From the IMG/VR virus record IMGVR_UViG_3300017987_005500: a stretch of 64,000 bases of DNA; one strand, 5' to 3'. Every line of letters begins with the position of its first letter. Within the stretch, counting starts at the first letter, position 1. Made by a program: the position numbers and the translations under genes. The notes beneath the pieces were generated by a model. That model ran no database searches. It saw only the letters and a list, made by a program, of their open reading frames with translations, and had not been told where the DNA came from. Positions 3,037-63,120 of the stretch are shown in pieces. This DNA is from a virus (lineage: Duplodnaviria; Heunggongvirae; Uroviricota; Caudoviricetes).

Positions 3037-4141
3037 GAAATTTCAGGAATTGATGGATGAGTCAATCGTTAAAGTTATTTTGGACAAAACAAGTAATATT
3101 GACTCAGTGATTGGTGAAGTCAAATCCTGGTGGAGTTATGATTTATTCAACAGGAAACCCGGACCTGCTTATCAGGAAGATGGTACATTTGTAGGGACTG
3201 ACTTGGACATGGCGTGTTTTCTCTATGAGTTAGCTGAGAGAGGAGCTGCCATAAATATTCCTGAATACAAATCTTTTCGTCAGACCAAATTCAAAGAAGG
3301 TCAGATGTTGACGAGTAAAGATAATCGTCATGGTATTTTGAAAGGACTTGTTTCAAATAAAGAAACATGGGTCTTTAGCATTAACATGATTGATCAAAAT
3401 GTTATGACCTCAGATGGAACTGGAGATTCAAGAACATTTTCTTTAACAGACTTTAAAGGGAAATGGTATGATGGATGGAAAGATCTTCAATTCATCGGCA
3501 CTGCAAAAGAAAATGGTTGGTTGATGGAGAATAAACTCCTAACTGACAATAAAATTATATTCAGAGATTTTATTCACCCTAATCGGTGGACATCATTCTT
3601 TGGAGTTAAATACTTCATTACAAAGCTTCTTATTCAACGACTGACTGAAGAAGCGAGTCATTATTATAAACAAGTAAAGAGAATGAAAGAAGAAGGAATT
3701 ACTTTTGCTCCAGGCGGCGGAGCAACATCACCAGCATCATATACAGATAAATCAGTAGACAAAGGAAAACAAATTACTGTCGACGCATTTGAAGTCGAAC
3801 TTGACGTACCGCCAAATGACACAAAGTTTCCTGAATATGAAAGTAGTCAGGAAAACTATACGGAATTATACAGAAAAAGAAATAACTTTGTATTCGGAGT
3901 TGGTCCAGCTCTAAGATTTATGACAAGGGCAACTGAGTATGCACACTTTAAAAATCCTGATCGCTTTCCGCATTGGATAAAAGGCGCGGAATGGGTACAT
4001 GAATATAAACAAAAAGGTAAAAAGAAAGTTTGGAGTCGTTTAGTACTTTGCCAGCCAGAGAATTTTAAATTAGGACTTGCTTTAAGAAAAAGAACCTGGC
4101 CAAAAAGCACAAGAGTCTCCGAAGATTATGAAGAAAAATAA
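3019..4141 (+). CDS. Hypothetical protein (~374 aa)
   Basis: Long ORF. Probable start ATG 3019 (MKAVSKK) follows GAGGAG SD. The ORF-track start at 2975 overlaps the cca gene end. Confidence 0.55.
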
Positions 4142-11199: not shown

Positions 11200-12198
11200 T
11201 TAACATACTTTATAAGCTAATTGACCTGTTGAACATTCGTCTTTGTGACCTTTTTTATAATGACATGTTTCACAACAAGCAATTCCAAAGTCAGGATCAA
11301 GTGAAAAAAATGGTTCTAATTTTTTTGGTCTTGAATGATGGGCATGATTTGCTTTTTCTCCACAATATTCACATTTGTAGTTTGCTCTTTCTAAAACTTC
11401 AGTTCTCCATATCATATATTCTTCACTTGTATAATATTCTTCTTTGATAATTCCTGCTCTTATTTGATCTTCTTTAATAAGTTGAGTTATAGTTTTTCCA
11501 AATAATGGACATTCTTCTTTACACTTATTAGAACAATAAAAATAAGAACCTTCATTACCATTTATACTTTCCAATTGTCTTATTCTTTCAGTAATCTGAC
11601 TTCCAGTTGGAGTAAACCAACCATCTTTTTCTTTACTATTTATACAATTATGATTTTTACAATGTACCTGAATTTCTTTTTCTCCTGGTTTATCAGGATT
11701 ATATCTCATTTCCTCAATTTTACTAAATGTAGGATATTTATTTATATAATCTATAATTGTCATAAATCTATGATTTAATATACCAATTCTACTTTCACTT
11801 ATTTTACGATTATGTTCTTTTGTATTCTTTTTACCTTTCATAGATTTACTAAGTTTTTGTTTATGTGAATCAGATAAACTATGTAATTTTTTTCCTTTAT
11901 TCCAAGCTTTTTGCCCTTTACTAGATTCACTCATTTTTTTTAAAGACTCTTCTGAATAAATTCCAGTTTTTCCTCTATTCCATGACTTTTGTCCCTTATG
12001 AGATTCGCTCATTTTCTTTCTTGATTCTTCATTAACTTTTTTGCCTTTACGAGGATGTCCATTAACTTTAAATAAATCTTTCATTTTTCTTTTATTTGCT
12101 GGACATTTTCTATGATTATTTACACAACACCATTTTCCATTTTTAAACTGATGAACAGCTTCTTGTCCACATCCATATTCACAATTCATATTATTCAC
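11200..12198 (-). CDS. HNH homing endonuclease with NUMOD-like repeats
   Basis: C-terminal 'CEYCGEKANHAHHSRPKK' HNH box. Repeated 'SESHKGQKSWNRGKTG / SESSKGQKAWNKGKK' motifs, N-terminal Cys cluster. Inserted within the head gene block. Confidence 0.7.
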   Translation of the reverse strand: MNNMNCEYGCGQEAVHQFKNGKWCCVNNHRKCPANKRKMKDLFKVNGHPRKGKKVNEESRKKMSESHKGQKSWNRGKTGIYSEESLKKMSESSKGQKAWNKGKKLHSLSDSHKQKLSKSMKGKKNTKEHNRKISESRIGILNHRFMTIIDYINKYPTFSKIEEMRYNPDKPGEKEIQVHCKNHNCINSKEKDGWFTPTGSQITERIRQLESINGNEGSYFYCSNKCKEECPLFGKTITQLIKEDQIRAGIIKEEYYTSEEYMIWRTEVLERANYKCEYCGEKANHAHHSRPKKLEPFFSLDPDFGIACCETCHYKKGHKDECSTGQLAYKVC

Positions 12199-22896: not shown

Positions 22897-23964
22897 TTAT
22901 TTTTCAACTCTTATAATTGTTTTTCGGTCTAACTGTAATTTCATATGTTCAATTACCATTTCCAATTGATTTATATATTTTTCAATTGACCCATCAATTG
23001 TAATTACTTTTTCTAAACTTCCAAAATGCATCTCAAGACATTCCATTAATAAATTCTTTATTTTAGGTTCATCAGGAGAATGTTGTAAATCACATTTAGT
23101 ATATAATTCTTCTAATGACTTTTCTTTATCTTCAAAATATTGAGTGATTGTTTCTTTTTTCCAGTCACCTCTGCGAATGGATTTAAGTTGCTCTCTATTT
23201 CTTTCAAGATCAAGATCATGTTCAGTCATTATTTGCTCAACTTCATTTATTAGTCTTACTACATGATAAGCAAATTTAACATCATATCCATGTTTCATTA
23301 TGTCAGGTAATCGTCTTGTTAATTTTTTCTTTCCACCTTCTGTCAATTCTAAAAATAATCTCCCGACATATTTTACTTCAGCAATTGGAAATTTTTCTTT
23401 TACTTCTTCAATATTAAAAGTGACAGGGTTGATATCCAATTTATCACATTCTTCAATAAAAGGTAAAATCTTTTTTGATTGCATTTTATTAAGTTGAGAA
23501 TATGCATACCCTTTGAATCTATGCCATGCTCCCTTATGTAAAAATAACTTTCTGTTTTCTCTTATATGCTCACCAATTTGAGTCGAATGTAATATACATC
23601 TTCTTGGTACAAATAAGGAGTCAATCATATTAGGATTATTTTGCATACATAATTGAAAATACTTTGTAATGCTATGAATATTTAAATCATATTCTTTGCC
23701 TTCTTCCTTATCCATAATATGATGTATTTGAAATTGTTCAAACCTTATAGGTTGTTTTCCAAAACCATGAATATAACCTGATAGATGAGGAAATATCATA
23801 TCTTTATAAGGAATTGAAAATCCATAAATATCCATATCCGACGTATCATTGCTACATCCATATGCAACACTTCCCATTAATACTTCATAATGAACATTAC
23901 TTTTCATATGAGCAGGAGGATTGATTAACTGCTTTTTCATTAATTTATCTATGATTGATCCCAT
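22897..23964 (-). CDS. Pol-beta superfamily nucleotidyltransferase (355 aa)
   Basis: 'GSVAYGCSNDTSDMDIYGF' matches the GS-x9-13-DxD nucleotidyltransferase signature. Confidence 0.5.
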   Translation of the reverse strand: MGSIIDKLMKKQLINPPAHMKSNVHYEVLMGSVAYGCSNDTSDMDIYGFSIPYKDMIFPHLSGYIHGFGKQPIRFEQFQIHHIMDKEEGKEYDLNIHSITKYFQLCMQNNPNMIDSLFVPRRCILHSTQIGEHIRENRKLFLHKGAWHRFKGYAYSQLNKMQSKKILPFIEECDKLDINPVTFNIEEVKEKFPIAEVKYVGRLFLELTEGGKKKLTRRLPDIMKHGYDVKFAYHVVRLINEVEQIMTEHDLDLERNREQLKSIRRGDWKKETITQYFEDKEKSLEELYTKCDLQHSPDEPKIKNLLMECLEMHFGSLEKVITIDGSIEKYINQLEMVIEHMKLQLDRKTIIRVEK

Positions 23965-28197: not shown

Positions 28198-31100
28198 CTA
28201 AAATGTTAAAACGTTTGTTTTTTGTTTTACTTCAGTAATTGGTTTAAGTAATAAATCGTGTCTATCTTTAAATGCGAATTCTAAATTTCCATTTAAGTCA
28301 GGTAATATATATGGTGGTAAGCATGGTTCATCATCTGGAATTGCTATGACTTTAAATTTATTTCCATCAGCTATAAATTTATCATATTTTTTAATTACAT
28401 CTTTTGGAGCTTTATCTCTATCAATTCCTAAAACTCTAAACATATATGACTTGGAACCTTGATTGTGAATATGATACATTACTTTGTTCCAAGCTTCCAT
28501 AGCTTTCACACCTTGAGGGATTGTTTTATAATCATTAATCTTTTTACCATATGATACAGGTCTTGCAATAGTCTTATCACCTTTCATAATTAGACTTTTA
28601 AATTCTTCTTCTTTTTGTTGAATATATGAGAAAATTTCATGCAACGATACATTCTCTGATTTCAATATTATATCAAGAAGTTCTTTCATAAACTCTTTTG
28701 ATTTACTTGGATAATCAGATCTCTTTATCTCAATACCCATATAGTTAATGTCATCAACTTTTTTACCTTCTTGATTAGTTACTCTTATTGAATATCGTTT
28801 CTTAGCTAAGAATAAACCTCTTGATATAATAAGCTCATTCTTTAACTCTAATCTATTTTTTTCAAATGGAACATTATGCTTTGCTACCATTTCTTTCATA
28901 ATTGTTTCATTCAAATAAGTTTGAATTTCATTACACCAACTTAATATTTGCTTTTCAGTTTTATCTCCTTTAAAGTCTTGAAAGCAACAAAAAATTGAAT
29001 CAGTATCGCCTGTTACAATATGAGGAGTTGATAATTTTCTTTTTTGCATTTCTTTTGGATCATACATCTCTTTCTTTGTAAGAGGTTTTGCTCTCTTTAT
29101 TTTTTGCCCTGTTCTTAAATGCTCCATAAATTCATTACCTTCAACAATACTCCATTTAAGAGCTTCCTGCCCACCCAATGTAATTGCAGTTGCACAACTC
29201 CTATCAAAGAATCTAAATATCTTATTTGCAATTGCTCCATATAATGAATTAGCAAGAACCTTATATGAATACTGTCTTGAATAATAAAAGTCAAAACCTG
29301 AATCATCTTTAGCTTCTTTTGCTTTAAACATCTTACCTTTATATATTTTACGAGAACCTAATAACATTGTAAGAATCCCACTATATACAGATTCAACATT
29401 TTCATGGTTATCATATACACAACCATTAATTGTAACAAGCCATTTTTTCTTATCAATATCTCCTAATAAATCTTTTGTATTAATTCTTTCAGGAATCCTA
29501 TCACACATTGGATCCATTATTATATCAATTTCATCTGGAAGACCTTCTCTATTATATGCTACATCATAACCGAGAGATTCATCTTCTAATTTCAGAATAA
29601 AATTATTTGGACCAATGTTATAAGTTATCATAAGACTCGGATATAGAGATGTGAAGTCAAAGTCAGTTATATCATCATATATTCCAGGAATTGGATCATA
29701 TACAAATGCTCCAGGATATTTTTCTTTTGCAATATGAGGATCTCCATTCTTAGACGCAAGACCTCTTTCCTTCAAATATGACACAGTTAATGAATCAACT
29801 TGACCCAATACTGCAGAACCTGAATCAAAACTTGTATTACAAATTGTCCTTATCTCATTTATAAAATTAACATGACTTAACTTATCTTCTAATTTCTCAA
29901 GAAGAACAACGTCCCTAATATTATACTCAATTAATTTATTTAATGCTTTTGTATACATCTCATGAAAAGGATAAGGCATTTGTATTTTGGTCATCTTTAC
30001 TTCAACTTGACCAATAAACCCTAATTGATAATTTTCCTTTTTTGTAAATGTAAACATCTTATATAAATGCATCTGATCTAATGGGACACAACCTACTAAA
30101 TTACAAATGAATCGAGAACCTTCAACATAAAATTCTCCAAACTTTGACATACTCCCCTGAGGAATTTTTAATCTTTTAAGTCTATTGAATATATACTCAA
30201 AGTCAAAGGCAACTGCATTCCAACCTGTAATAAAATCAGGATCAACTTCTTTAAAATCTTTAATGAATTGTTTTATTAATGTTAATTCATTTTTAAATAT
30301 TTTTAACTCAACACCTTTCTGCTCAATTATTGGTTCAGCTCCATTATCAATAACATAAGTTGTATATTTTTTATGATAAGCAGTTGTAAGAAGATTGATT
30401 GGAAACTTAGCTTCTTTCGGATCTGGAAATACTTGAACACCTTTTGTGTCGATCTCAATATCAATAAACATTATATTAAAATCAGTTCTCTTAGCTTCTC
30501 CAGTGGATTGAAGATAATAATCCATTGCATGCTTCTGAGTTATTTTTATATCTCCTTCATATGTTTTCTCAGAATCAAGAACAGCTCTTTCTCTATAATG
30601 ACATTGACCTTGATATAATTGATCATAAGGAATTATCTTATCTCTTTTAACACCATCTGGACAAGTATAAAAATAATAATTATCACCTTCTTGATGATAG
30701 ACTTTCTTATTATCTTTATCTCTAAATATGTACAATACTTTATTGGTTTTCATTATATATTGTACATCAACTAATCTATATTCATCAGTATAAAATTTAT
30801 CTGGAATTTTATAATTATAAACACCTTTTTTAAGATTCTCTGTTTTAATTGGAGCTTTCTTTTTATCTGTAAATGTCTTTCCTAAAAATTCAGCTGCTGT
30901 TTTAATATCTTCCTCAAATTTATCAGCATAACTTTGATTTCGATTTACGAAACTTGGGTGAACAGTTACTAAAACATCTCTATCTTCCCATTTAAAAAAT
31001 TGACCTCTTAAATTAGTTATTCCTTTTTCTGCAATTCCAAATGCTTTCATAGGACTTGATCCCATTACAATTATCAATTTTGGGTTACAAGTTTTAATAA

Positions 31101-31437
31101 TATCAAAACAATTTGTTTTACATTTTTCAATTGTTTCGTCATTTGGATTTCCTGTATTTCCATCTTCGTCTAAGGTCAAACATAATACACAATTTGTCAG
31201 TAACCATTTAAAGTCTTTCTTTATATATTTGTCAAAATGTTTTCTAAAAGTCTTTCCTGCTTTTCCAATTAAAGGAACACCTCTTTTAATCTCATCCTTG
31301 CCAGGATTTTCAGATACCACAACAACTTCAACTTTTGTAAGATCTGCTTTTGAGTTAGTGTCCATAATACATGATGGAGCTTCTAACAATTCACATGTTG
31401 AGCAATCAGCTAATGATTGTCTGAGACTTTTTGCCAT
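28198..31437 (-). CDS. Family B DNA polymerase with N-terminal uracil-DNA-glycosylase-like domain
   Basis: 'HIVTGDTDSIFCCF' PolB motif C (DTDS). Exonuclease-like 'MFIDIEID' (Exo I). N-terminal 'SENPGKDEIKRGVPLIGKAGKTFRKHF' resembles family-4 UDG motifs (GEAPG / GxPFvGxAGxlL). 1079 aa. Confidence 0.85.
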   Translation of the reverse strand: MAKSLRQSLADCSTCELLEAPSCIMDTNSKADLTKVEVVVVSENPGKDEIKRGVPLIGKAGKTFRKHFDKYIKKDFKWLLTNCVLCLTLDEDGNTGNPNDETIEKCKTNCFDIIKTCNPKLIIVMGSSPMKAFGIAEKGITNLRGQFFKWEDRDVLVTVHPSFVNRNQSYADKFEEDIKTAAEFLGKTFTDKKKAPIKTENLKKGVYNYKIPDKFYTDEYRLVDVQYIMKTNKVLYIFRDKDNKKVYHQEGDNYYFYTCPDGVKRDKIIPYDQLYQGQCHYRERAVLDSEKTYEGDIKITQKHAMDYYLQSTGEAKRTDFNIMFIDIEIDTKGVQVFPDPKEAKFPINLLTTAYHKKYTTYVIDNGAEPIIEQKGVELKIFKNELTLIKQFIKDFKEVDPDFITGWNAVAFDFEYIFNRLKRLKIPQGSMSKFGEFYVEGSRFICNLVGCVPLDQMHLYKMFTFTKKENYQLGFIGQVEVKMTKIQMPYPFHEMYTKALNKLIEYNIRDVVLLEKLEDKLSHVNFINEIRTICNTSFDSGSAVLGQVDSLTVSYLKERGLASKNGDPHIAKEKYPGAFVYDPIPGIYDDITDFDFTSLYPSLMITYNIGPNNFILKLEDESLGYDVAYNREGLPDEIDIIMDPMCDRIPERINTKDLLGDIDKKKWLVTINGCVYDNHENVESVYSGILTMLLGSRKIYKGKMFKAKEAKDDSGFDFYYSRQYSYKVLANSLYGAIANKIFRFFDRSCATAITLGGQEALKWSIVEGNEFMEHLRTGQKIKRAKPLTKKEMYDPKEMQKRKLSTPHIVTGDTDSIFCCFQDFKGDKTEKQILSWCNEIQTYLNETIMKEMVAKHNVPFEKNRLELKNELIISRGLFLAKKRYSIRVTNQEGKKVDDINYMGIEIKRSDYPSKSKEFMKELLDIILKSENVSLHEIFSYIQQKEEEFKSLIMKGDKTIARPVSYGKKINDYKTIPQGVKAMEAWNKVMYHIHNQGSKSYMFRVLGIDRDKAPKDVIKKYDKFIADGNKFKVIAIPDDEPCLPPYILPDLNGNLEFAFKDRHDLLLKPITEVKQKTNVLTF

Positions 31438-34103: not shown

Positions 34104-35046
34104 TTTTCATTATCTCAATCATATTAGGATAAAAATTATCAACTTCATCCTGACATATCATTTCAGGAACAGGTAAACTTCCTATTAATATTTTTCGACA
34201 TATTTGAGCTGCTTCAATATAATCATCATATAAATATTCATTTGGAAGTATCTCAGGGAAACATAATGCTCGAGGAGCTACGGGAATACATCCACAACGA
34301 AGAGCATCCATAATTGTATAATTGAAAGTATCTTCTTGTGTTGAAATGAAAAGGATTTTTGATTGTGAAAGGAATCGAGAATATTCTTCAGGATCTGTAA
34401 ATGTTTTTCTTATAATTTTTGAACCAACTTGTCTTTCAACTTTTTTCTCTAATTTCAAATTTACTTTTTGAACACAAGGTCTTGATACAGAAATTATATT
34501 ATTTACTTTTGGTAATGGAAAATTTGTTATTATTTCATTGGGAGGTTTTGGTAATCTAACAACTTCAACATTATTCCAACCCAATTTTTCTTTGTGATAA
34601 TGAGATCCTACAAAGACCTTATCAAACATTTTTGAAAGTCCTGTCTCAACTTTAAATTTAGGTCTTCTTACATCTGAAAAGAAATCATATTTATTTTTCG
34701 CTGTTGCATGACAAAAAATAAATTTCTTTCCTATAAACCTTTTTGTGAAAAGTATATTAGGAAATATACCAGGAAAACTTATATCAGTACAAAATAATAC
34801 ATCACCAGGTTTTTCATAAATTTCAACATAATCTTCAATTTGTGCAATCTCTAATACTGCAGAATTATGTACACTTGAAAAGTCTTTAAAATGTGCTCTG
34901 TCATGAGCAAGGTCCTCAATAATATCTCCGCCAAGAACAACCACATCATCAAAATATTTTTTGAATACATCTTTAAATTCGGTATACCACCATTTCGTAT
35001 ATCTTCCATCAGTCGGAAGTTGAGGTACAAAATACATAGTTGCCAT
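34090..35046 (-). CDS. Glycosyltransferase (GT-B/GT4-like)
   Basis: 'FISTQEDTFNYTIMDALRCGCIPVAP' resembles the GT1/GT4 'E-x7-E' donor-binding motif (EgfGlvllEAmacGlPVIa). Confidence 0.45.
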   Translation of the reverse strand: MATMYFVPQLPTDGRYTKWWYTEFKDVFKKYFDDVVVLGGDIIEDLAHDRAHFKDFSSVHNSAVLEIAQIEDYVEIYEKPGDVLFCTDISFPGIFPNILFTKRFIGKKFIFCHATAKNKYDFFSDVRRPKFKVETGLSKMFDKVFVGSHYHKEKLGWNNVEVVRLPKPPNEIITNFPLPKVNNIISVSRPCVQKVNLKLEKKVERQVGSKIIRKTFTDPEEYSRFLSQSKILFISTQEDTFNYTIMDALRCGCIPVAPRALCFPEILPNEYLYDDYIEAAQICRKILIGSLPVPEMICQDEVDNFYPNMIEIMKNEML

Positions 35047-35258
35047 TATTTTTTCCCTTTTAAATTCTTTTTAAATTCATTCATCATTTTTTCCATATAT
35101 TTTGTTGTAGATGATTTAAATGCTAAGGTCAATTCCATTTTAATATCTTCTACTGAGTACGTATTATTCACATCTAATTTGTTCACTCTGTCAACAAAAT
35201 CATCATATGCTTGCGCTATAATGACTATTTGGTCGAATTTGTTTTGTTTAGATTTCAT
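35046..35258 (-). CDS. Hypothetical protein (70 aa)
   Basis: Small ORF, ATGA-coupled. Confidence 0.35.
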   Translation of the reverse strand: MKSKQNKFDQIVIIAQAYDDFVDRVNKLDVNNTYSVEDIKMELTLAFKSSTTKYMEKMMNEFKKNLKGKK

Positions 35259-35286
35259 GGCTAAATATATTACTATACGTATAACG

Positions 35287-35832
35287 TTAAAGGGAAATTG
35301 TGTTAATACATCGCTGGATAATTGATGTTGTTGAAATGTTAGAAACTAAATTGATAGATATAACATCTCCCCCATTTTCTTTTACAAAATCTTCTCCCAC
35401 AATCTTTCCCTCCCAATCTTTTCCTTTAACTAAGATATCAGGTACAATTCTCTTAATTAGGTTAATAGGCGTGAGTTCTTCAAATATGAATATATAGTCA
35501 ACCATTGGAAGCGCTGACAGTGTATTTCGCCTTATACTCTCGTCAAGTATAGGTCTTGTATCACCTTTTAATTGTTGGATTGATGTGTCAGAGTTCAATC
35601 CAACAATTACAATATCTCCAGCTTTTTTACAATCATTCAATAAAGTCAAATGACCTAAATGCAATATATCAAAACATCCATTTGTAAACACGACTTTTTT
35701 ATCTTTGCGTCGTATTTGAAAATGCATCATATGTCTCTCATTTAAATATTGACTTACCATCTTCATTTGAATTTTCCTATTTTTTGAATACCCATTTATC
35801 ATAACCACTGAATAGAAAATACTTATGTTCAT
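35287..35832 (-). CDS. Cytidylyltransferase-family nucleotidyltransferase (HIGH motif)
   Basis: 'VVFTNGCFDILHLGHLTLL' is the (T/H)xGH motif of the TagD/RfaE-II cytidylyl/adenylyltransferase family; 181 aa. Confidence 0.6.
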   Translation of the reverse strand: MNISIFYSVVMINGYSKNRKIQMKMVSQYLNERHMMHFQIRRKDKKVVFTNGCFDILHLGHLTLLNDCKKAGDIVIVGLNSDTSIQQLKGDTRPILDESIRRNTLSALPMVDYIFIFEELTPINLIKRIVPDILVKGKDWEGKIVGEDFVKENGGDVISINLVSNISTTSIIQRCINTISL

Positions 35833-36373: not shown

Positions 36374-36450
36374 TGGAACCCCCGACACGAATCGAACGTG
36401 CATAAAGCGGCCTTAGAAGGACCGTGCTGATCCATTTCAGCTACGGGGGC
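36374..36450 (-). tRNA. tRNA-Arg (anticodon TCT)
   Basis: Hand-folded cloverleaf: acceptor gcccccg/cgggggt, D arm gctg..cagc, anticodon stem-loop 'cggtc-cttctaa-ggccg', T arm gcacg-ttcgatt-cgtgt; CCA encoded. Confidence 0.65.
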
Positions 36451-36987: not shown

Positions 36988-38019
36988 CTACATTGAAAAA
37001 TCGGCAGCATCAGTAAAGTTTGCTGCATTAGGATTTTTCATCCATGCTGCAGTTGTTACCATACTTACATATGGGAACCCATCTTCTTTATGTAATGCCT
37101 GTCCAATAAACTGACGATTTTTTATTGTCTCAAAAGATATATTCATTTCTTGTTGCTCAACATCTCTTTGAAACTTAGTTTTAATGAATCCTTTAAGAAC
37201 ATTTTTGACTCTTTCATCTTCCTTTGCTTCAACTTTCTTAAGTTCATCAAGGATGTCCTTAATAGAGTTTATGTTAGCTGATGCAAGAGGAACCCTCATT
37301 TTAGGAGGCGGTGTGTTCTTACCAAATTTCTTTGCAAACCATATAGCAACACTCCCATAGCTTTCTCTGATAAGAGGTTCCCATATTGATTTCCAATACT
37401 TATAATTCGGAGTTCTTTCAACACCAATAACATCTCCGTTTAAAAGGATTATAGCACCAACCATCTTTGGAACTATTTCAAATTCAGCTATAAATGTGCT
37501 AAGCTGTTTATCAAAACCTTGTAGAAATAATTCAAGATGACCTTTATTTAAAAGACCCAATTCTTGATTGAATTCTTTAATAACTGGCCACAATTCCTGA
37601 TATGAAGTACTGTTTTTTGTCATTGTTGCAAATTCTCTCATCGCCCAAGGTAAAATAGACATATGATAATCAGAGTCAGATCTTATACTTCCACCCTGAG
37701 AGTCTTGAATACAACGAGCTTGCTTTGTTGTATAACTCCCTCTGCCTTTCATAAAAATACCTTTAGGAGATGAATGATTTTGTGCAGTTTGTTTAGACAT
37801 TACAGCTCCACCGGTAGGAAATATTGTTGGAGCATTACCCAAGTTTTTCACATTTAATGTACCATAATCTCCGGTACTTGCTTCAATATTTCCAATTGGT
37901 GCTTCAAAACTATCATCGACAATGTCTGATAATAATGGGATGATTTGCATAAATCCCACTGACTGCATTCTTCCAGGTGTGCATCCTTTTAAGATGCTTG
38001 CAATTGTGATTTCTTTCAT
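36988..38019 (-). CDS. Hypothetical protein (343 aa)
   Basis: Long ORF, ATGA-coupled to upstream vWA gene. Confidence 0.5.
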   Translation of the reverse strand: MKEITIASILKGCTPGRMQSVGFMQIIPLLSDIVDDSFEAPIGNIEASTGDYGTLNVKNLGNAPTIFPTGGAVMSKQTAQNHSSPKGIFMKGRGSYTTKQARCIQDSQGGSIRSDSDYHMSILPWAMREFATMTKNSTSYQELWPVIKEFNQELGLLNKGHLELFLQGFDKQLSTFIAEFEIVPKMVGAIILLNGDVIGVERTPNYKYWKSIWEPLIRESYGSVAIWFAKKFGKNTPPPKMRVPLASANINSIKDILDELKKVEAKEDERVKNVLKGFIKTKFQRDVEQQEMNISFETIKNRQFIGQALHKEDGFPYVSMVTTAAWMKNPNAANFTDAADFSM

Positions 38020-40723: not shown

Positions 40724-40820
40724 CCGAGACCCCTCTCAGACATAAAAGTATTATGAATTATAATTATGAGGACAGACCAAGCGATTTAGGTCATAAAATA
40801 ATAATAATTCATAAAGAGTT

Positions 40821-40941
40821 GGAGAGTATCAGGTTCGAACCGATATATCATATCCGAAGATAAATGTTTTGCCCGACAATTTTCTACCCGCATGCCAACG
40901 CCGGAAGGTAAATCGAAAATTGTACTTTAAACTAACTCTCC
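40821..40941 (-). ncRNA. tRNA-like element with perfect acceptor and T arm but no canonical anticodon arm
   Basis: Acceptor ggagagt/actctcc (7/7), T arm 'atcgg-ttcgaac-ctgat'. 5' 'ggagagt ta gttt' is followed by a ~46-nt insert containing 'tttaccttcc'. The would-be anticodon region is a UUCG tetraloop hairpin 'tatc-ttcg-gata'. Confidence 0.3.
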
Positions 40942-41060: not shown

Positions 41061-41145
41061 AAGATTTCTAAAGTACCATAAAAAGTCCCCGTATAAATTC
41101 TTAAAACTTTTACTAAACTAAGGTAGGGTAAAAAGCATATCGTAA

Positions 41146-41225
41146 AATTAATGTCCGGACTTGAACCGGAAACATCTTGCTTAGTAGGCAAGTACTCTAA
41201 CCAATTGAGCTACTTTATTTTCTAA
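41146..41225 (-). ncRNA. tRNA-like gene, anticodon loop reads ACT, weakly paired acceptor
   Basis: Good D arm 'gctc-aattggtta-gagt', anticodon arm 'cttgc-ctactaa-gcaag', T arm 'tccgg-ttcaagt-ccgga'. Acceptor strands 'aataaag'/'cattaat' pair at only 5/7. Confidence 0.35.
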
Positions 41226-44412: not shown

Positions 44413-44504
44413 TGGTGGAGATAGAGGGATTCGAACCCTCGACACCCCAAGTGCAGTGCCGGCATTACCTGCTTTGGGCGCTCTTACCGCTAAAGCTATA
44501 TCCC
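44413..44504 (-). ncRNA. tRNA-like gene (92 nt) with extended/ambiguous anticodon region
   Basis: T arm 'gaggg-ttcgaat-ccctc', acceptor 'tatctcc'+a+CCA, D arm 'gctt-tagcggtaa-gagc', 5' acceptor 'tgggata' (6/7). Between D and T arms, a 'cccaa...ttggg' pairing encloses ~27 nt instead of a 7-nt loop. Confidence 0.35.
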
Positions 44505-44508
44505 ATTT

Positions 44509-51622: not shown

Positions 51623-52069
51623 TTAAAATGGGTCAATTGGCATGCAAACAATATCATCTATACAACCTGTCACTTTTAATTTATATTCAGTTTGTCTTTT
51701 ATACATCTTTGAAATAATTAAAGCATAACCTGCAGCTTCAAGAAAATTATTAAAAAGTCCAAACCAAAATGTTTTTCCAGTTCTTAAATCTCTTAATTCA
51801 CTTTGATAATGATCAGCATATCTTGTTGATACATTATGCTGTATATCAATCTTTCCACCTTCTGGATGGAGTTTAATGAAACTTCTTTCATAATTGATGT
51901 TGATAAACCATCTTTTGTATAAACCGCTTTTTGCAAATGTATTATTTAAAATAAATTGCTGTGCATCATCAACTGCTTTTCGTACTTCTTTCTCATGTAG
52001 CATAATTGTCTCCAAACTTCGTAATTCGTCATGGTACCCCAGGCAGGATTCGAACCTGCGCGCAAACAT
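51623..52069 (-). CDS. Hypothetical protein (148 aa)
   Basis: ORF; function not recognisable. Confidence 0.45.
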   Translation of the reverse strand: MFARRFESCLGYHDELRSLETIMLHEKEVRKAVDDAQQFILNNTFAKSGLYKRWFININYERSFIKLHPEGGKIDIQHNVSTRYADHYQSELRDLRTGKTFWFGLFNNFLEAAGYALIISKMYKRQTEYKLKVTGCIDDIVCMPIDPF

Positions 52070-52107
52070 TTAGAGTGTCCTGCTCTAAACCACTGAGCTA
52101 CTGGGGC
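52032..52107 (-). tRNA. Suppressor tRNA (anticodon CTA, reads UAG amber)
   Basis: Acceptor gccccag/ctggggt, D arm 'gctc-agtggttta-gagc', anticodon arm 'ggaca-ctctaaa-tgttt' (two G.U pairs), T arm 'gcagg-ttcgaat-cctgc', CCA encoded. Confidence 0.5.
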
Positions 52108-52114
52108 AGTTTAA

Positions 52115-52417
52115 TTAAAGTAAGTTGAGTCCCTTAAATGAGTCATTTTGGTCTAAGCACGCGATTGAGGTTAATTGGTTACCTATATCTGGCTCAATAA
52201 ATTTCTCATGAAATATACCGTCCATACTTAGTCTATGAAGGTATTTTTTCAATTGGTATTGACTTACTTTTAAATAAACAAACGTCTGTCTATCCCAGTT
52301 TATGTCAGGTCGCTTTGATGCAAATTTAGCGACGACGTGACCACCTTGTACTGCTTGCTGGGAACTACTTAAGTCATTTCGTATGAGGACATATAACTTC
52401 ATTCCTTTGTCCTCCAT
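52115..52417 (-). CDS. Peptidyl-tRNA hydrolase PTH2-like protein (100 aa)
   Basis: 'KLYVLIRNDLSSSQQAVQGGHVVAKF' resembles the PTH2 'vvRtDLkMgkGKiaAQcsHaa' core; short (100 aa). Confidence 0.4.
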   Translation of the reverse strand: MEDKGMKLYVLIRNDLSSSQQAVQGGHVVAKFASKRPDINWDRQTFVYLKVSQYQLKKYLHRLSMDGIFHEKFIEPDIGNQLTSIACLDQNDSFKGLNLL

Positions 52418-52650
52418 TCTGTAATTTTCTCTTGTAACTCTTTTTTAATTCTATCAATCCAATCTTCGTCCGGTTCATTATCTTCTCTTGGGATTTCAAT
52501 TTGTTTTCGTTTTCGCCCTCTTAATTCACAATAGGCGATGTGTTGATGTCTAAAAATAACACTATCCCAATTATCATGTTCTTCTCTAATTTTAGATGCA
52601 AGTGCTTTCTGTGTTTCTTTGAATTTTAAAAATGGATTAATTGTAGTCAT
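52399..52650 (-). CDS. Hypothetical protein (83 aa)
   Basis: Small charged ORF. Confidence 0.4.
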   Translation of the reverse strand: MTTINPFLKFKETQKALASKIREEHDNWDSVIFRHQHIAYCELRGRKRKQIEIPREDNEPDEDWIDRIKKELQEKITEWRTKE

Positions 52651-52763
52651 TTTATGTTCTCCTTATAAATTATGTTTATTAAATTAAAATTATCAAATGT
52701 TAATAAACATATAAGGAGGTCCACGAATGACCTACGTATCAAAATCTTTGTAATTAAGCTACG

Positions 52764-53006
52764 TCATAATTTTCCCTTTCTTCTAAATAGTTTAAAAAAA
52801 CTTCTCCAAAAAGATTTTTTTATAGGAACATCATTGGATGATCCTATAATTATAACTGTGGAAGGTTTAGGTTTGATCAATTCAAATTCATCTTCTGTAG
52901 CATCTTTATATTCATATATTTCTCTTTGCTTACAATCTTCACAAACCAAATCCTCCATCGAGTCATAATAAATTGGTTCATTATCGCATCCTATGTAATC
53001 ACACAT
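52764..53006 (-). CDS. Small zinc-ribbon protein (80 aa)
   Basis: 'MCDYIGCDNE...CEDCKQ'. Confidence 0.35.
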   Translation of the reverse strand: MCDYIGCDNEPIYYDSMEDLVCEDCKQREIYEYKDATEDEFELIKPKPSTVIIIGSSNDVPIKKSFWRSFFKLFRRKGKL

Positions 53007-53155
53007 TAAAACCTTCCTATTAAAAAATTAAAATAAATTCCCTCTTATAAATTAATATATATAATAGGAAGGTTTATATTAAAACTTCAATTCTTTATCA
53101 TCATCGTCTTTATTACATATTCTGAATAATTTCCAGATCCAACATAAGAACTTTC

Positions 53156-53449
53156 CTATACGATCTCCAGCTCTGTTGGGGCAGCGGGAGCAACGAAATC
53201 TAAAGGGACGTTATTCTTTACCGCCAAAGGTCCCTCATTTCCAACATCATCAACTGCTGAAAGACCTATATTATAAGTCCCATCAACATCACCAAGAAGT
53301 CCATTTAATTCAACTGAAGTAACATTTCCCAATGAATGTTTTGTTGAGGACATTGTTACAGCATTTGGAACTTCTTCAACATATAAATTATAACCTGTTA
53401 CATCTGAAGCAGTACTTGCTTTCCATTTAAGAGTTTTTGTTTTTGCCAT
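53156..53449 (-). CDS. Hypothetical protein (97 aa), beta-rich
   Basis: 'LKWKASTASDVTGYNLYVEE' (FN3-like W..Y.LY signature). Confidence 0.4.
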   Translation of the reverse strand: MAKTKTLKWKASTASDVTGYNLYVEEVPNAVTMSSTKHSLGNVTSVELNGLLGDVDGTYNIGLSAVDDVGNEGPLAVKNNVPLDFVAPAAPTELEIV

Positions 53450-53468: not shown

Positions 53469-53885
53469 TTATTCTAAGATTAATCCCTCAATTGGAGGGA
53501 TTTGTGCATATACCCACCATGCTTGCTTTTCACCATTCATTCTTGAATTTTCAGGTTGGGTTGTATGAGACCAATCTGAAGTTTTAGTTTCTCCATCAAC
53601 TAAAGTTATTGATCTAATTATAAATATATAATGACCAACTTTATTAAAAGTATATGTTGTTGATATACTTGTCGTGGACCCTAAATCTATGAGTTGTTCT
53701 GTCTCAGCATGATATGCTTTAATCTCATATATGATAATATTATCAATAGGTTCCCAACCAAGTTCAATTGTATCACCAACATAAACCCATCGAGTAGCGA
53801 ATACATAATGACCTTTTTCAAATGCATGAATGTATGAAGCAAACATTGAAATAAGCATAAATGAAATTAAAATTATTTTTTTCAT
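53469..53885 (-). CDS. Secreted FN3/Ig-like protein, paralog A (138 aa)
   Basis: Signal peptide 'MKKIILISFMLISMFASYIHA'; shared C-terminus 'WVYAQIPPIEGLILE'. Confidence 0.5.
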   Translation of the reverse strand: MKKIILISFMLISMFASYIHAFEKGHYVFATRWVYVGDTIELGWEPIDNIIIYEIKAYHAETEQLIDLGSTTSISTTYTFNKVGHYIFIIRSITLVDGETKTSDWSHTTQPENSRMNGEKQAWWVYAQIPPIEGLILE

Positions 53886-53887
53886 AT

Positions 53888-54286
53888 TTACTCCAATATA
53901 AGGTCTTCAATAGGTGGTATTTGTGCATATATCCAAAAACTTCTATGTTCTCCATTTACTCTACAATTTTCAGATTCTGATGTTATTGTCCATGGTGATT
54001 CTCCAACATCATTTAATGCTCTTAATTTAAGAAAATAATGACCAACTCTTTTTAATACAAATGAAATTTGTATATTTGGAGTTTTCCCAAGAGCAGTTAC
54101 TTGATCAGTTTCAACATGAATCAATAAAACTTCATATTCAGTTGCATTACTTACAGTGCTCCATTTAGCAGTAATTGTATCTCCTGAATAATTCCAATAA
54201 GTTGCATGATCATGAAGTCCTGGTTCAATTGCATAAACTGGAGAAGTAAAAAAAATAATAAGAAAGATTAAAATGATTTTTTTCAT
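53888..54286 (-). CDS. Secreted FN3/Ig-like protein, paralog B (132 aa)
   Basis: Signal peptide 'MKKIILIFLIIFFTSPVYA'; 'WIYAQIPPIEDLILE'; 'TEYEVLLIH' FN3-like. Confidence 0.5.
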   Translation of the reverse strand: MKKIILIFLIIFFTSPVYAIEPGLHDHATYWNYSGDTITAKWSTVSNATEYEVLLIHVETDQVTALGKTPNIQISFVLKRVGHYFLKLRALNDVGESPWTITSESENCRVNGEHRSFWIYAQIPPIEDLILE

Positions 54287-54625: not shown

Positions 54626-54710
54626 TTGGCGGAGGGTAGACGAATCGAACGCCCACGTGTCACCGCGCCCAAGGGTTCAAGCCTTGTTGCCGACCATTCA
54701 GCGGTACCCT
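54626..54710 (-). tRNA. tRNA-Ser (anticodon TGA), class II with long variable arm
   Basis: Acceptor ggagggt/accctcc perfect, anticodon arm 'caagg-cttgaac-ccttg', T arm 'gggcg-ttcgatt-cgtct', 85 nt, CCA encoded. Confidence 0.6.
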
Positions 54711-54763
54711 CCAAATTGTAAAGGGTGGCAAACACTTATAATTATTTACCACCCTACTCTTAT

Positions 54764-55768: not shown

Positions 55769-56365
55769 TCATTCCCATAAATATTTATATTGATTTAAAA
55801 TAAAAATTACAACTTTACCTATAATTAATTCTTTAAATTCAGAATGCATATATTTATGATGTGTAGGACACAATGGAATCAAATTTTCTTTTTGATTATT
55901 ATTATGATTTTCATCAAAATGATGAACTTCTACTACATTTTCTTCATCACAAATTATACAACGTTTATCATGATAATAAAAACATATTTTTCTATAATCA
56001 TTACTTTCATCAATTTCAATTTTATTAGGTCCACCAAAAAGAATATATCTACATTCTTGAGAACATGTTACACATCCTCTGTTCACAACTTTTTTACATA
56101 TTGGACATAATTTCTTATGAATAGGATTTTCTTTGCATGATCTTTCATGTTGTTTAATACCACGAATTGAAATTAATTTATTGCAATGTAAACAGTTTGT
56201 CAATTTAGCAGAATATTGTCTTTGTCCTTCTTTATACGATGTCTTTAATTTTAACTTATTTTTTCGTCTAACTTCAGGACATTTTGCTACAAATTCACTG
56301 CAACAATGATTTCCATTTTTAAATGTTTTTATTGCATCATTGCCACAACCATATGAACAAAGCAT
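55769..56365 (-). CDS. HNH endonuclease (198 aa)
   Basis: 'VVEVHHFDENHNNNQKENLIPLCPTHHKYMH' HNH box; multiple CxxC; abuts tRNA-Phe. Confidence 0.65.
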   Translation of the reverse strand: MLCSYGCGNDAIKTFKNGNHCCSEFVAKCPEVRRKNKLKLKTSYKEGQRQYSAKLTNCLHCNKLISIRGIKQHERSCKENPIHKKLCPICKKVVNRGCVTCSQECRYILFGGPNKIEIDESNDYRKICFYYHDKRCIICDEENVVEVHHFDENHNNNQKENLIPLCPTHHKYMHSEFKELIIGKVVIFILNQYKYLWE

Positions 56366-57607: not shown

Positions 57608-57686
57608 ATGGTCGGACATGTCCGATTTGAACGGCGATTGGTGCTCCCAAAGCACCCGTGTTACCAGGTTACACTACATGTCCGAT
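57608..57686 (-). tRNA. tRNA-Pro (anticodon TGG) with non-canonical acceptor/T-stem register
   Basis: Anticodon arm 'ggtgc-tttggga-gcacc' perfect, D arm 'gtgt-aacctggta-acac'. Extended acceptor pairing 'tcggacatg/catgtccga' (9 bp) with only a 3-bp T stem 'ccg-ttcaaat-cgg'; ends ...GACCA. Confidence 0.45.
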
Positions 57687-61051: not shown

Positions 61052-61885
61052 TTAATTTTTAGCTTGAAGTCTCTCATATTCTTCCTTCGCAAATTCACTG
61101 GCGTATGCAATTAATAACATAACATCGCACTCATAAAATCCTGAAGCATTGAAACAATTAACTTCAATAACTTTTAAACCATCCGCTGTTTGACATATAT
61201 CAAGAGTATAAGCTTTCTCAACTTGCCAATCAGCTCTTGCAATTGATAAGGCAAATTCAATAACATTTCCTGGCATATCAAAAGCTTCCGCTGATTGATA
61301 TAACCTATTGTGTTTCTTATACATTGAACCTGTCACAACTTCTTTATCAATTACAACAAATCTCCATTCTGCCCAAATATCTTTAACAGAACTTATTGTA
61401 ACTTCTGATTTAATGGTTATGTTTTTAAATTGACTAGTTGAATCATTAATGACGTCATACCATTTTTCAAATTCATACTTATCAAAAACATCACCTGAGA
61501 ATAGTTTAAAATCAGAGTTTGGTCTTATAAATAATGGAGGTCCGTCAAAATGATCTAATACTTCATATATTTTCATAACCTTAGAGTCATGATTTAACCA
61601 TTTTTCCCCATATTGTTTTCCCCATACGCTTGGTTTAAATGTCTCCTCATTAAACCACATACCTGGAAAATATTTACCGCTTTTAACTATGTTCTTTAAT
61701 AATGTCGTAGTTCCATATGCTAAAACAGGACCGTCATGGTCAGTAATTCCCTCTGGTAAACAATCTGCAAAGGGAATTATTTTAACTAAGTCATATGGAA
61801 GCTCTTGTCTTTCAAAGCAATTGATCATTTTATCAACTGCTTTTTCTTTAAAAATATTTGTCTGTAATATCCATTTGGTTTTCAT
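61052..61885 (-). CDS. Hypothetical enzyme, possible ATP-grasp-like fold (277 aa)
   Basis: C-terminal 'YTLDICQTADGLKVIEVNCFNASGF' resembles the ATP-grasp 'D..g..vlEvN' segment; weak. Confidence 0.3.
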   Translation of the reverse strand: MKTKWILQTNIFKEKAVDKMINCFERQELPYDLVKIIPFADCLPEGITDHDGPVLAYGTTTLLKNIVKSGKYFPGMWFNEETFKPSVWGKQYGEKWLNHDSKVMKIYEVLDHFDGPPLFIRPNSDFKLFSGDVFDKYEFEKWYDVINDSTSQFKNITIKSEVTISSVKDIWAEWRFVVIDKEVVTGSMYKKHNRLYQSAEAFDMPGNVIEFALSIARADWQVEKAYTLDICQTADGLKVIEVNCFNASGFYECDVMLLIAYASEFAKEEYERLQAKN

Positions 61886-62304
61886 CGTACTATCTTTTTA
61901 TCAGCATATTCACAATCACGACCATCACATACTGCTGTAACAATTACAGGTAAATTATCTCGATTTGTGCCAATTGCCCAACATAACATATGAGATTTTA
62001 AATAAGATTCTGAAAATCTTGTTCCCGTATTTGAACAATCATCACATTCACCTGAAAATAAATCATCGCAATTACAAGTTATATTACGCATTTCTGAATG
62101 ATCTCTCTTCACATATGTTTGCATAGTTTCAATCATAATAGGTTTTATAGCATAAGAAACATCTTCTACGCTGTGAGATGTTGAGGTCATTGTTGTGGCA
62201 GTTCCAAATATCATTGGAACTACAATTGCGCAAACTATTCCAATTATTGCAATTACTATCATCAATTCAACTAATGTAAAACCTTTCGCTTTTTCTTTTT
62301 TCAT
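61882..62304 (-). CDS. Type IV pilin / pseudopilin-like protein with class-III signal peptide
   Basis: 'MKKEKAKG|FTLVELMIVIAIIGIVCAIVVPMIFG' is the canonical prepilin leader + G/FTLxE + hydrophobic helix; Cys-rich C-terminal domain. In the ORF track it is the C-terminal part of 61882..63120. Confidence 0.55.
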   Translation of the reverse strand: MKKEKAKGFTLVELMIVIAIIGIVCAIVVPMIFGTATTMTSTSHSVEDVSYAIKPIMIETMQTYVKRDHSEMRNITCNCDDLFSGECDDCSNTGTRFSESYLKSHMLCWAIGTNRDNLPVIVTAVCDGRDCEYADKKIVR

Positions 62305-62459
62305 GATTTTCTTATACCTTTCTTGATCTTCTTTAGTAGGTTCCCAATCTAAAATACCTAAGTCCTTATCAATCTCCCATTGTTCTCTTGCTGAGAGATA
62401 TTTATAATTACCTGGTCTTTTCAATGCTTGCTCTAATGACATTGTCAAATTTCCTTTTA

Positions 62460-62533
62460 TGGTAGCCCTGCTCGGACTTGAACCGAGAACATCTTGCTTG
62501 TAAGGACAGTGCTCTTCGCGCTGAGCTATAGCT
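62460..62533 (-). ncRNA. tRNA-like element (degenerate), embedded in-frame between HNH and pilin-like coding sequences
   Basis: T arm 'ctcgg-ttcaagt-ccgag' + 'cagggct a CCA', D arm 'gctc-agcgcgaa-gagc'. Anticodon stem is mismatched ('ctgtc-cttacaa-gcaag'). No complementary 5' acceptor. Confidence 0.3.
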
Positions 62534-62539
62534 TTTTTC

Positions 62540-63120
62540 CCAACAATATATGTTTCTGTTAATGAATGACAATTTGGGCAAAGTAAATCTAAATTTTCAG
62601 GTCTATTATTAGTCCAGTCTCCATCTTTATGATGTAATTGCAATGGGACTTTATTTGTAGTAGGATGTATTTCATCCCATTTGCATATAGAACATTGATT
62701 ATTATATTTTTCAATTAACCATTTTTTCATAAATCCTTGAGGAGATTTATATTTATTTGGATTTTTAAACCAATCTTCTAATTTGTCATTGTAAAGTTTA
62801 TTATGATAGCATTTAAAATTACAATATTGTCTATTGGTTATCTCATTCTCGCAAAATAAACATTTATTTATAGTTGGAGTTTTTGGTTCCCCAGTTCCTC
62901 CAAGACTTATACTTATTTTCCTTTTTGTTTCTTCATTATGTACTCTTCCTTTATTAGTAATTGTTGCTGAACAACTTAAAGAGCAGAATTTATTTTGATC
63001 ACCAATTAACTTATTATTACATTCTGGATTTTCACAAATTCGCAATCCTTTGCAATGTTTTTTATGCATATCATAATGCTGACTTGATTTAAAACTTCGC
63101 CCACAAATACATTCTATCAT
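62540..63120 (-). CDS. HNH endonuclease (N-terminal part of the 61882..63120 ORF)
   Basis: 'LQLHHKDGDWTNNRPENLDLLCPNCHSLTE' HNH box; N-terminal CxxC/HxxC clusters. No stop codon before the tRNA-like element, so the 3' boundary is uncertain. Confidence 0.55.

Follow-up and report, generated by a model that had tools for sequence, protein, structure and literature searches.

What use does a bacteriophage whose own genes end in TAG have for a tRNA that reads UAG? The question is raised by the IMG/VR virus record IMGVR_UViG_3300017987_005500, a member of the Caudoviricetes, of which one stretch of 64,000 nucleotides (nt; hereafter the window) was analysed. A sequence-only reading of the window had noticed a tRNA with the anticodon CTA at 52032-52107 among genes of standard code, and had proposed that it might modulate read-through of specific TAG-terminated genes or adapt the phage in advance to hosts in which release-factor activity is altered. 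The identity of the tRNA and the standard code were borne out by our analysis; the proposed read-through extensions were not, no observation favoured the idea of adaptation to such hosts, and a cassette of genes around the tRNA had gone unnoticed. Our favoured explanation, to which we give a probability of about 0.55, is that the tRNA is a functional amber suppressor and the last member of a cassette that also comprises up83, encoding a helical protein of 83 amino acids (aa), and a mini gene for a protein resembling peptidyl-tRNA hydrolase 2 (Pth2), the cassette supplying a suppressor together with a clean-up or feedback partner without any switch of the genetic code.

Identity of the tRNA

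ARAGORN predicted 16 tRNAs in the window, every one on the minus strand and between 36 and 60 kb, one of them being 52032-52107 with CTA at position 35; the coordinates were those already noticed, the strand (minus) being the missing item. The Rfam model RF00005 matched 52035-52107(-) over model positions 1-71 of 71, with 65.1 bits (gathering cutoff 29) and an E-value of 6.8e-12. In the covariance alignment, CUA occupies positions 34-36 of the 7-nt loop CUCUAAA, and therefore no shifted stem yields a sense anticodon, the outcome that had been named as fatal to the assignment. ARAGORN and the Rfam alignment agree on the loop C32 U33 C34 U35 A36 A37 A38, with U33 before the anticodon; A37 and A38 on its 3' side form a favourable context for suppression. 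The sequence further reveals an acceptor stem GCCCCAG/CUGGGGU with G1.U72 as the 1-72 pair, the discriminator A73 followed by a genome-encoded CCA, a canonical D-loop (AGUGGUUUA) containing GG, an anticodon stem of 5 bp, a variable loop of 4 nt and the T-loop UUCGAAU. The feature was confirmed to be a real tRNA(CUA).

Two special kinds of tRNA were considered and rejected. ARAGORN labelled the gene tRNA-Pyl, but tRNA-Pyl has an anticodon stem of 6 bp, a variable loop of 3 nt, a small D-loop lacking G18G19 and a non-canonical T-loop; the architecture here is canonical, and the label mirrors the anticodon alone. An initiator-like tRNA starting translation at UAG is contradicted by an anticodon stem without the run of three G-C pairs, by the G.U pair at 1-72, and by the presence of an ATG 1-8 codons upstream in every one of the early stop codons described below.

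The amino acid inserted is not fixed by this evidence and probably does not matter. The short variable loop rules out bacterial tRNAs of the Leu, Ser and Tyr types, and the nearest sense tRNAs among 427 phage tRNAs were Arg(UCU) and Lys(UUU). BLAST against INPHARED returned mixed matches annotated as Met, Lys or Arg, the E. coli genomes contained only a prophage tRNA-Arg of about 75% identity, and IMG/VR, when searched with the exact pattern of the tRNA, gave 0 matches. The combination of U35 and A73 would, on E. coli precedent, suggest possible charging by lysyl- or glutaminyl-tRNA synthetase (GlnRS).

Linkage of Pth2-like genes to stop-reading tRNAs

The gene preceding the tRNA in the direction of transcription encodes the 95-aa Pth2-like protein. 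Loci with such genes were gathered by the protein alone, the tRNA having no part in the selection, from exact-match homologue look-ups, pattern and tblastn searches of IMG/VR (56 loci), GTDB contigs (8 loci) and a tblastn search of INPHARED; dereplication at 90% protein identity left 60 clusters, which are not phylogenetically independent. A stop-reading tRNA was found within 4 kb (the fetched flank) in 48 of the 60 clusters, with the anticodon CUA in 45, UUA in 2 and UCA in 1. The distance was at most 1 kb in 41 clusters and at most 100 nt in 15; all but one of the 48 linked tRNAs (47/48) lie on the same strand as the Pth2-like gene, and in 21 clusters the stop-reading tRNA is the sole tRNA of the locus. 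The GTDB scan alone showed the linkage in 7 of 8 loci. About 760 kb of other tRNA-rich jumbo-phage loci, examined as a control, contained 3 distinct, unrelated tRNA(CUA), none beside a Pth2-like gene; those of the vWA-gene loci L011, L025 and L030 were set aside, being not homologous to the window tRNA and having no adjacent Pth2-like gene.

The order of the elements varies, the tRNA lying directly downstream of the Pth2-like gene, downstream past one or two open reading frames (ORFs), or upstream, which indicates that the association has survived rearrangement. Locus L047, with 59% protein identity, keeps the cassette intact. In the Lak phage loci L120 (Lak-B4, MK250023.1 342903-351151) and L121 (Lak-A1), the stop-reading tRNA is of the ochre type (UUA) and lies about 600-700 nt upstream. 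These data show a strong and replicated linkage of the Pth2-like family to stop-reading tRNAs.

The 33 cassette-linked tRNA(CUA) sequences that were aligned fold as cloverleafs, with compensatory double-sided changes in 20 of 21 pairs. Among 54 cassette tRNAs, the loop CUCUAAA occurs in 44 and CCA is encoded in 24. The compensatory changes and the near-constant loop argue that the linked tRNAs evolve as tRNAs. Their acceptor stems, on the other hand, are variable, as is the discriminator (A in 27, G in 13, U in 11 and C in 3), suggesting that no single synthetase identity is conserved in the family. This would fit the decoding of UAG codons in leader peptides that are themselves variable and could accommodate any residue.

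Early in-frame stop codons in relatives of the cassette

The Pth2-like reading frame of about 20 clusters consists of an ATG, 1-8 codons, a TAG (referred to here as the gate) and then the conserved core (...R.DL...Q..H...EPDIGN...), with no ATG, GTG or TTG between the gate and the core except in L093, where an ATG directly follows the TAG. Examples are MKNL(TAG)INKLIVVTRKDL in L065, MK(TAG)INNHKLIIITREDL in LR756500, MPDT(TAG)NLYVYVFIRTDL in L096 and MR(TAG)NHPYIYIFTRKDL in L074. In the close relatives L065, L066, L067 and L069, the residues of the leader differ, while its length and the TAG are kept. About 20 clusters have TAG as the stop at this position and 2 have TGA; TAA never occurs there, although it is the commonest terminator in the cassette loci (447 TAA, 221 TGA and 113 TAG). 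A purine after UAG favours suppression over release, and the base 3' of the gate TAG (n=19) is A in 13 cases, G in 4, C in 2 and U in none. A tRNA(CUA) lies within 4 kb in 16 of the 20 TAG-gated clusters. An in-frame TGA takes the place of the TAG in L081, L084 and L082; in the cluster formed by L081 and L084 there is no tRNA(CUA), and a tRNA(UCA) is located 2.3-2.9 kb away on the opposite strand.

A second small gene shows the same arrangement. Beside the Pth2-like gene in 11 loci (L065-L069, L075/76, L079, L092, L097, L107 and L108) lies a gene for an unannotated protein of about 80 aa (...VFHFNKxHLxDPxIPMWV...GFSTKETPDNxHTKGSIK...), here called the VFHFNK family, and 7 of these loci show a TAG in frame at codon 3-7 of this gene. 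In the relatives, the UAG codons that the tRNA is predicted to serve are thus found at the 5' ends of cassette genes and not at gene ends. From the roughly 20 gated Pth2-like genes together with the linkage, it is very likely that the cassette tRNA family is used as a real suppressor. LR756500 and LR756501 are complete huge-phage genomes with gated cassettes; 50-kb samples taken elsewhere in them had a coding density of 0.96 under code 11, TAG accounted for only 1 of 46 and 0 of 59 stops, respectively, and no further gated ORF was found in the samples, suggesting that the gate is specific to the cassette and does not reflect general recoding. On these sequence comparisons, the cassette appears as a recurrent mobile unit of large phages and not as a tool for genome-wide code change.

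Two side observations concern the gated genes. In the loci L070/L071 (1715-2452 / 3245-3982) and L077 (3244-3996), the mini gene is immediately preceded by a gene for a longer paralogue (about 245 aa) whose N-terminal domain is Pth2-like, and these genes too are TAG-gated (MT(TAG)INHKLIIITRRDL...). In addition, the Pth2-like database entries P0185, P0204, P0227, P0232, P0236, P0263, P0280, P0284 and P0287 begin at profile position 5-14, which is what gene callers would yield if an early TAG had removed the true start.

The Pth2-like gene of the window opens with a plain ATG and is ungated. A scan of the window for other genes with an early TAG gave 11 raw candidates, none of them credible; the best, at 35046-35348(-), was rejected, as it resolves into a normal small gene with the ATG at 35257 as its start.

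Genetic code of the window

The sequence-only reading had taken TAG as not globally recoded in the window, and this was upheld. With our own greedy ORF cover, the coding density of the 64 kb was 0.881 under code 11 and 0.882 with TAG as a sense codon; by the criterion of Borges et al. (10.1101/2021.08.26.457843), a code-15 phage gains more than 5-10% in density when TAG is read as sense, and the window does not. Stop codon use is biased towards TAA, TAG terminating 12 of the 114 called genes, among them the 1079-aa polymerase gene. If TAG were read through, the resulting tails would have 2-22 codons, with a median of 5.5 vs 9 for the genes ending in TAA or TGA. The genes for the gp23-like capsid protein, gp20-like portal, prohead protease, DnaB-like helicase and the 1079-aa family-B DNA polymerase are uninterrupted under code 11. 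The window is of standard code and not TAG-recoded, as the equal densities, the use of TAG as a stop and the short tails together indicate, and the same features would make read-through cheap. No gene for release factor 2 (RF2) or GlnRS, accessory genes of code switching, was found in a Pfam scan of approximately 50 window proteins.

A neighbouring window protein recurs in identical form on public contigs as long as 308 kb, suggesting that the window, with a G+C content of 31.8%, represents about one fifth of a jumbo phage genome. Nothing close is known at the DNA level, a megablast search of 15 kb of the window against INPHARED giving no match, and the polymerase has best matches of only about 25% identity among cultured phages.

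The mini Pth2-like protein and up83

The mini gene at 52115-52402(-) encodes 95 aa (MKLYVLIRNDL...EPDIGNQLT...LNLL) and ends in TAA. An AlphaFold2 (AF2) model of the protein, built from a 20-member alignment, had a pLDDT of 90.8, and the only significant Foldseek neighbours in the PDB were Pth2 structures and the Pth2-like Atu0240 (E-values 3e-6 to 2e-4), including the enzymes of M. jannaschii (2zv3) and T. acidophilum (1rlk) and human Bit1 (1q7s), with a probability of 1.00 and TMq of 0.71-0.78. The family profile matched a peptidyl-tRNA hydrolase in the PDB (24bt_A, E-value 5.6e-5), and the homologues P0128 and P0129 carry precomputed PF01981 assignments. With the single sequence as query, the hints were sub-threshold (PDB 2zv3, E-value 1.6; PHROG 3668, 'hydrolase'). 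The neighbour of the tRNA is accordingly predicted, on its model and profile, to have the Pth2 fold. The family is large, with 2868 metagenome representatives at 50% identity (E-value of 1e-3 or less), and shows no variation at the Asp of EPDIG or at a Thr downstream of it.

The up83 protein (gene at 52399-52650, minus strand) has the core motif FRHQHIAYCELRGR..QIE.P and an AF2 model of three helices with a pLDDT of 88. In at least 19 loci of the subgroup of the window, and also in L124-L127, its gene immediately precedes that of the Pth2-like protein. For up83, no match was found among PDB folds, Pfam and PHROG families, and the VFHFNK protein likewise had no family or structural match.

Organization and variability of the locus

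In the direction of transcription (minus strand), the first gene of the cassette is up83, which the start of the Pth2-like gene overlaps by 4 nt; 7 nt separate the TAA of the latter from the first base of the tRNA, and a further 28 nt the tRNA from a 126-aa gene (51623-52003, minus strand). A scan for terminator-like sites found none anywhere between up83 and the 126-aa gene that follows the tRNA. A promoter-like sequence, TTGATA-16-CATAAT (52669-52696, minus strand), lies just upstream of up83 and matches the consensus at 10 of 12 positions; it is weak, and the number of such sites in the region (13) is not above the chance expectation from shuffled sequences (9.9 +/- 3.4) in this AT-rich DNA.

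The cassette lies in a lineage-variable block (52004-53155, minus strand), consisting of an 80-aa orphan ORF (52764-53006, minus strand), up83, the Pth2-like gene and the tRNA. The block is bounded upstream by a conserved fn3-like gene with a TAG stop (53156-53449, minus strand) and downstream by the conserved 126-aa gene, followed by a 316-aa gene and a tRNA-Met. In the syntenic loci L041/L042 and L044/L045, in which the 316-aa protein is 68-71% identical, the flanking genes and the tRNA order His-Pro-Ser-Phe-Ser-Ile...Met are kept; only 217 or 89 nt separate the fn3-like and 126-aa genes, and neither ARAGORN nor Rfam detects a tRNA between them. In L124/L125, up83, the 95-aa gene and the tRNA(CUA) are present at the same genomic place as in the window. 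The absence from two syntenic sets and the presence in L124/L125 suggest that the suppressor moves as part of a variable block, about 1.15 kb long. The 80-aa ORF had a homologue in none of the fetched loci and therefore appears to lie outside the conserved cassette.

The 316-aa neighbour matched no Pfam, PHROG or NCBIfam family and had no relative in IMG/VR, its relatives being found through a large protein search. Upstream of the fn3-like gene lie tandem paralogous genes for small proteins (53469-53885(-) and 53888-54286(-)) with signal-peptide-like N-termini and shared ends (...WVYAQIPPIEGLILE), of which L044 has one copy.

Other features of the window

Besides the T4-type capsid (Gp23 family), portal (Gp20 family), prohead protease and DnaB-like helicase, the window encodes the above family-B DNA polymerase (28198-31437, minus strand; TAG stop), which has a UDG-superfamily domain at its N-terminus (residues 35-173). 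A group of RNA-maintenance and NAD-related genes (1675-3036(+), 22897-23964(-), 35287-35832(-) and 36988-38019(-)) encodes a CCA-adding enzyme, an RNA-repair nucleotidyltransferase of the RlaP type, a cytidylyltransferase-like (NMNAT-type) protein and an ARPP-1 domain protein. An ORF with a NUMOD3 motif of the homing-endonuclease type (11200-12198(-)) lies between a portal-side gene and the prohead protease gene, and an HNH-type ORF (55769-56365) lies inside the tRNA array. In a 412-aa protein (61882-63120(-)), residues 277-300, an oddly internal position, form a prepilin-type N-terminal methylation motif.

For the other tRNAs, ARAGORN and Rfam differ in part. Rfam adds two weak matches without an ARAGORN call, at 40820-40941(-) (33.4 bits over 122 nt, possibly intron-containing) and 44416-44505(-) (38.2 bits over 90 nt), and the ARAGORN predictions Arg(TCT), Ser(TGA) and Pro(TGG) (36374-36450, 54627-54712 and 57609-57684) have no above-threshold Rfam match. 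A tRNA-Ser predicted by ARAGORN at 41145-41220(-) has the unusual anticodon ACT; the related array of L044 has Ser(AGA).

Proposed role of the cassette

We propose that the tRNA is probably transcribed together with up83 and the Pth2-like gene and then excised from the transcript. In the relatives, the proteins of the gated Pth2-like gene and of the gated second small gene would be made only once the tRNA decodes UAG, which would tie tRNA and protein functionally. The phage of the window, carrying an ungated cassette, would obtain from the tRNA a modest read-through of UAG, tolerated because its TAG stops are backed by nearby in-frame stops. Suppressor-tRNA read-through creates non-stop stalls that are cleared by rescue systems (PMC3985003). 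The Pth2-like protein may clear the products of suppression by hydrolysing peptidyl-tRNA or N-blocked aminoacyl-tRNA after read-through and stalling; alternatively, it may act on the suppressor tRNA itself, holding suppression at a set level, and its gated versions would then serve as a feedback sensor. Co-transcription, suppression in the phage of the window and the biochemical role of the Pth2-like protein are all inferred.

Besides the phylogenetic dependence of the clusters, several points weigh against this proposal. i) PF01981 matches the window protein only below threshold (E-value 0.22; 12.2 bits vs a cutoff of 23). ii) Compared with canonical Pth2, the family is shortened to about 95 aa, two residues (GK) being missing from the GKGK loop, and a near-invariant Gln15 aligns with the loop Lys, a residue reported to be catalytic in archaeal Pth2 (S. 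solfataricus); with this deletion and substitution, hydrolase activity of the mini protein is plausible but not assured. iii) A UAG-containing client gene was not found in the window. iv) The 64 kb of the window make up about 21% of the genome, the size of which is about 308 kb. v) In the cultured phages XacN1 (L118, ORF360-ORF364), Xoo-sp13 (L119, Xoo-sp13_324-327) and RAS14 (L117), the Pth2-like domain is fused as the C-terminus of a longer protein of 261-280 aa, and no tRNA lies within 3 kb of the fused genes. vi) The co-location of the cassette with genes for transfer-messenger RNA (tmRNA), considered below, was seen in only about 6 clusters. As a side observation, the fused genes are near an annotated glutamyl-tRNA amidotransferase gene (XacN1 and Xoo-sp13) or valyl-tRNA synthetase gene (RAS14).

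Alternative explanations

Four other explanations were judged weaker than the one proposed. It is unlikely that the cassette is a counter-defence or ribosome-rescue kit, in which the suppressor would occupy A-sites at UAG and, with the Pth2-like protein and in some phages a tmRNA, relieve stalling imposed by the host through stop-codon-directed A-site mRNases or tRNA-acylating toxins. Such a kit would fit the tmRNA genes found about 0.03-3.5 kb from the cassette in L049/L050, L061, L080, L085/L086/L089 and L125, the proposal that the PTH2 of jumbo phages helps to rescue jammed ribosomes (Iyer et al., PMC7824862) and the A-site cleavage of mRNA by RelE, the products of which are rescued by tmRNA (PMC3985003). 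The case is, however, entirely inferential: the linkage with tmRNA exists in a minority of loci, and since tmRNAs are present also in the control loci L012 and L013, enrichment near the cassette is unproven. Moreover, the UAG codons in the cassette's own genes would be left unexplained.

That the phage is partially of code 15, the tRNA serving in-frame TAG codons in late or lysis genes outside the window, is improbable. The in-frame stops of recoded phages are found mainly in genes for structure and lysis (Borges et al.), but the capsid, portal and protease genes of the window are intact, TAG ends 12 window genes including that of DNA polymerase, reading TAG as sense brings no gain in density, and the 50-kb samples from the two gated relatives are also of standard code. 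The incomplete coverage noted above does leave room for such genes, the low G+C content and TAA-biased stops match the state proposed to precede recoding (Borges et al., 10.1101/2021.08.26.457843), and TAG-recoded Lak phages also carry the Pth2-like gene.

Little credence is likewise given to the tRNA being a neutral passenger or relic, that is, a sense tRNA with a mutated anticodon or a recently gained suppressor without a current role. The recurrence of the gene-tRNA pairing in 48 of 60 clusters despite changed order and spacing, the compensatory changes that keep the cloverleaf with a nearly invariant CUCUAAA loop, and the intact cassettes of L047 and the syntenic L124 all speak against decay. 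What a relic would account for is the absence of a visible client codon in the window and of the block from close syntenic relatives, as well as the similarity of the tRNA to the Arg(UCU) and Lys(UUU) types; standard-code phages with acquired suppressors have also been described, at a stage where acquisition precedes recoding (Borges et al.).

The least probable explanation is that originally put forward, namely that the tRNA extends TAG-terminated proteins at the C-terminus into functional read-through isoforms: although 12-13 window genes end in TAG and the fn3-like gene has a tail of 22 codons, the tails are uniformly short, this longest one is not conserved (the orthologue in L041 has a tail of 8 codons and that in L044 a TAA stop), and in-silico read-through of 18 amber stops in XacN1 also yielded nothing (PMC5852040).

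Comparison with known systems

Phage suppressor tRNAs are well described in recoded phages and have occasionally been noted in standard-code relatives; tRNA(CUA) suppressors belong to the TAG-recoded (code 15) crAss-like, Lak and other gut phage clades (10.1101/2021.08.26.457843; PMC7886860; PMC9523058). The window shares with code-15 phages the phage-encoded tRNA(CUA), an AT-rich genome and a presumably standard-code host, and with Lak phages the mini Pth2-like gene beside a stop-reading tRNA. It differs in that its 64 kb are unrecoded, with TAG as a genuine stop and structural genes free of in-frame TAG, and in that the relatives of the cassette have UAG at codons 3-10 of their own small genes, not scattered in late genes.

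XacN1 is a standard-code jumbo phage with two tRNA(CUA) genes for which no read-through targets were identified (PMC5852040). It resembles the phage of the window as a standard-code jumbo myovirus with an amber-suppressor-type tRNA, a large tRNA set and a Pth2-like domain protein (ORF364), but its suppressor tRNAs are in the terminal repeats and the Pth2-like domain forms the C-terminus of a 279-aa protein encoded elsewhere, whereas in the window gene and tRNA are 7 nt apart. Genes for PTH2 (archaeo-eukaryotic type) were catalogued in jumbo phages by Iyer et al. 2021 (PMC7824862), in whose paper the word 'suppressor' has 0 occurrences. Their PTH2 set shares with the family described here the fold and the occurrence in large phages with tRNA-repair and translation genes; the latter family differs in its length of about 95 aa, the missing GK loop insertion and the stop-reading tRNA beside it in 80% of clusters.

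The classical suppressors supE, supF and T4 psu1 are mutant alleles of sense tRNAs. Like them, the window tRNA has the anticodon CUA in an ordinary elongator body, with A37 and A38 after the anticodon; unlike them, it belongs to a conserved wild-type family with a variable acceptor stem and discriminator and a linked protein partner. The prfB gene for RF2 is autoregulated through an in-frame UGA at which a +1 frameshift senses the level of release factor. Control of ArfA by trans-translation (PMC3985003) offers another comparison. The gated genes resemble prfB and ArfA in logic only, an early in-frame stop letting output be set by termination versus alternative decoding; unlike prfB, they imply simple read-through, for which the phage has a tRNA of its own, and the copy in the window is ungated. 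In the full-text literature, of which our coverage was incomplete, no paper was found that ties a Pth2-like gene to suppressor tRNAs or describes early amber gates, and the gated cassette seems to represent a new variation on how phages use stop codons.

Significance

Suppressor tRNAs in standard-code phages have been reported yet left unexplained, as in XacN1, or have been read as a way-station to recoding. The gated Pth2-like genes beside the suppressor would be the first concrete clients for such tRNAs. Genes of this kind would be truncated or missed by gene callers, and coding-density tests would be blind to so local a use of stop codons.

A more far-reaching idea, which we put forward tentatively and hold to be doubtful, is that the mini Pth2-like protein and the stop-reading tRNA form a dedicated two-component translation device, with an amber or opal sensor at codons 3-10 and with the suppressor tRNA, or the peptidyl-tRNA made from it, as the specific target of the protein. 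If so, the device would provide either read-through set by feedback or a release-factor-independent resolution of ribosomes at UAG, and may let a phage manipulate or survive changes in termination such as stop-codon-directed host toxins or loss of RF1 (release factor 1) function. It would then represent a new class of phage-encoded translation control, apart from genome-wide code switching.

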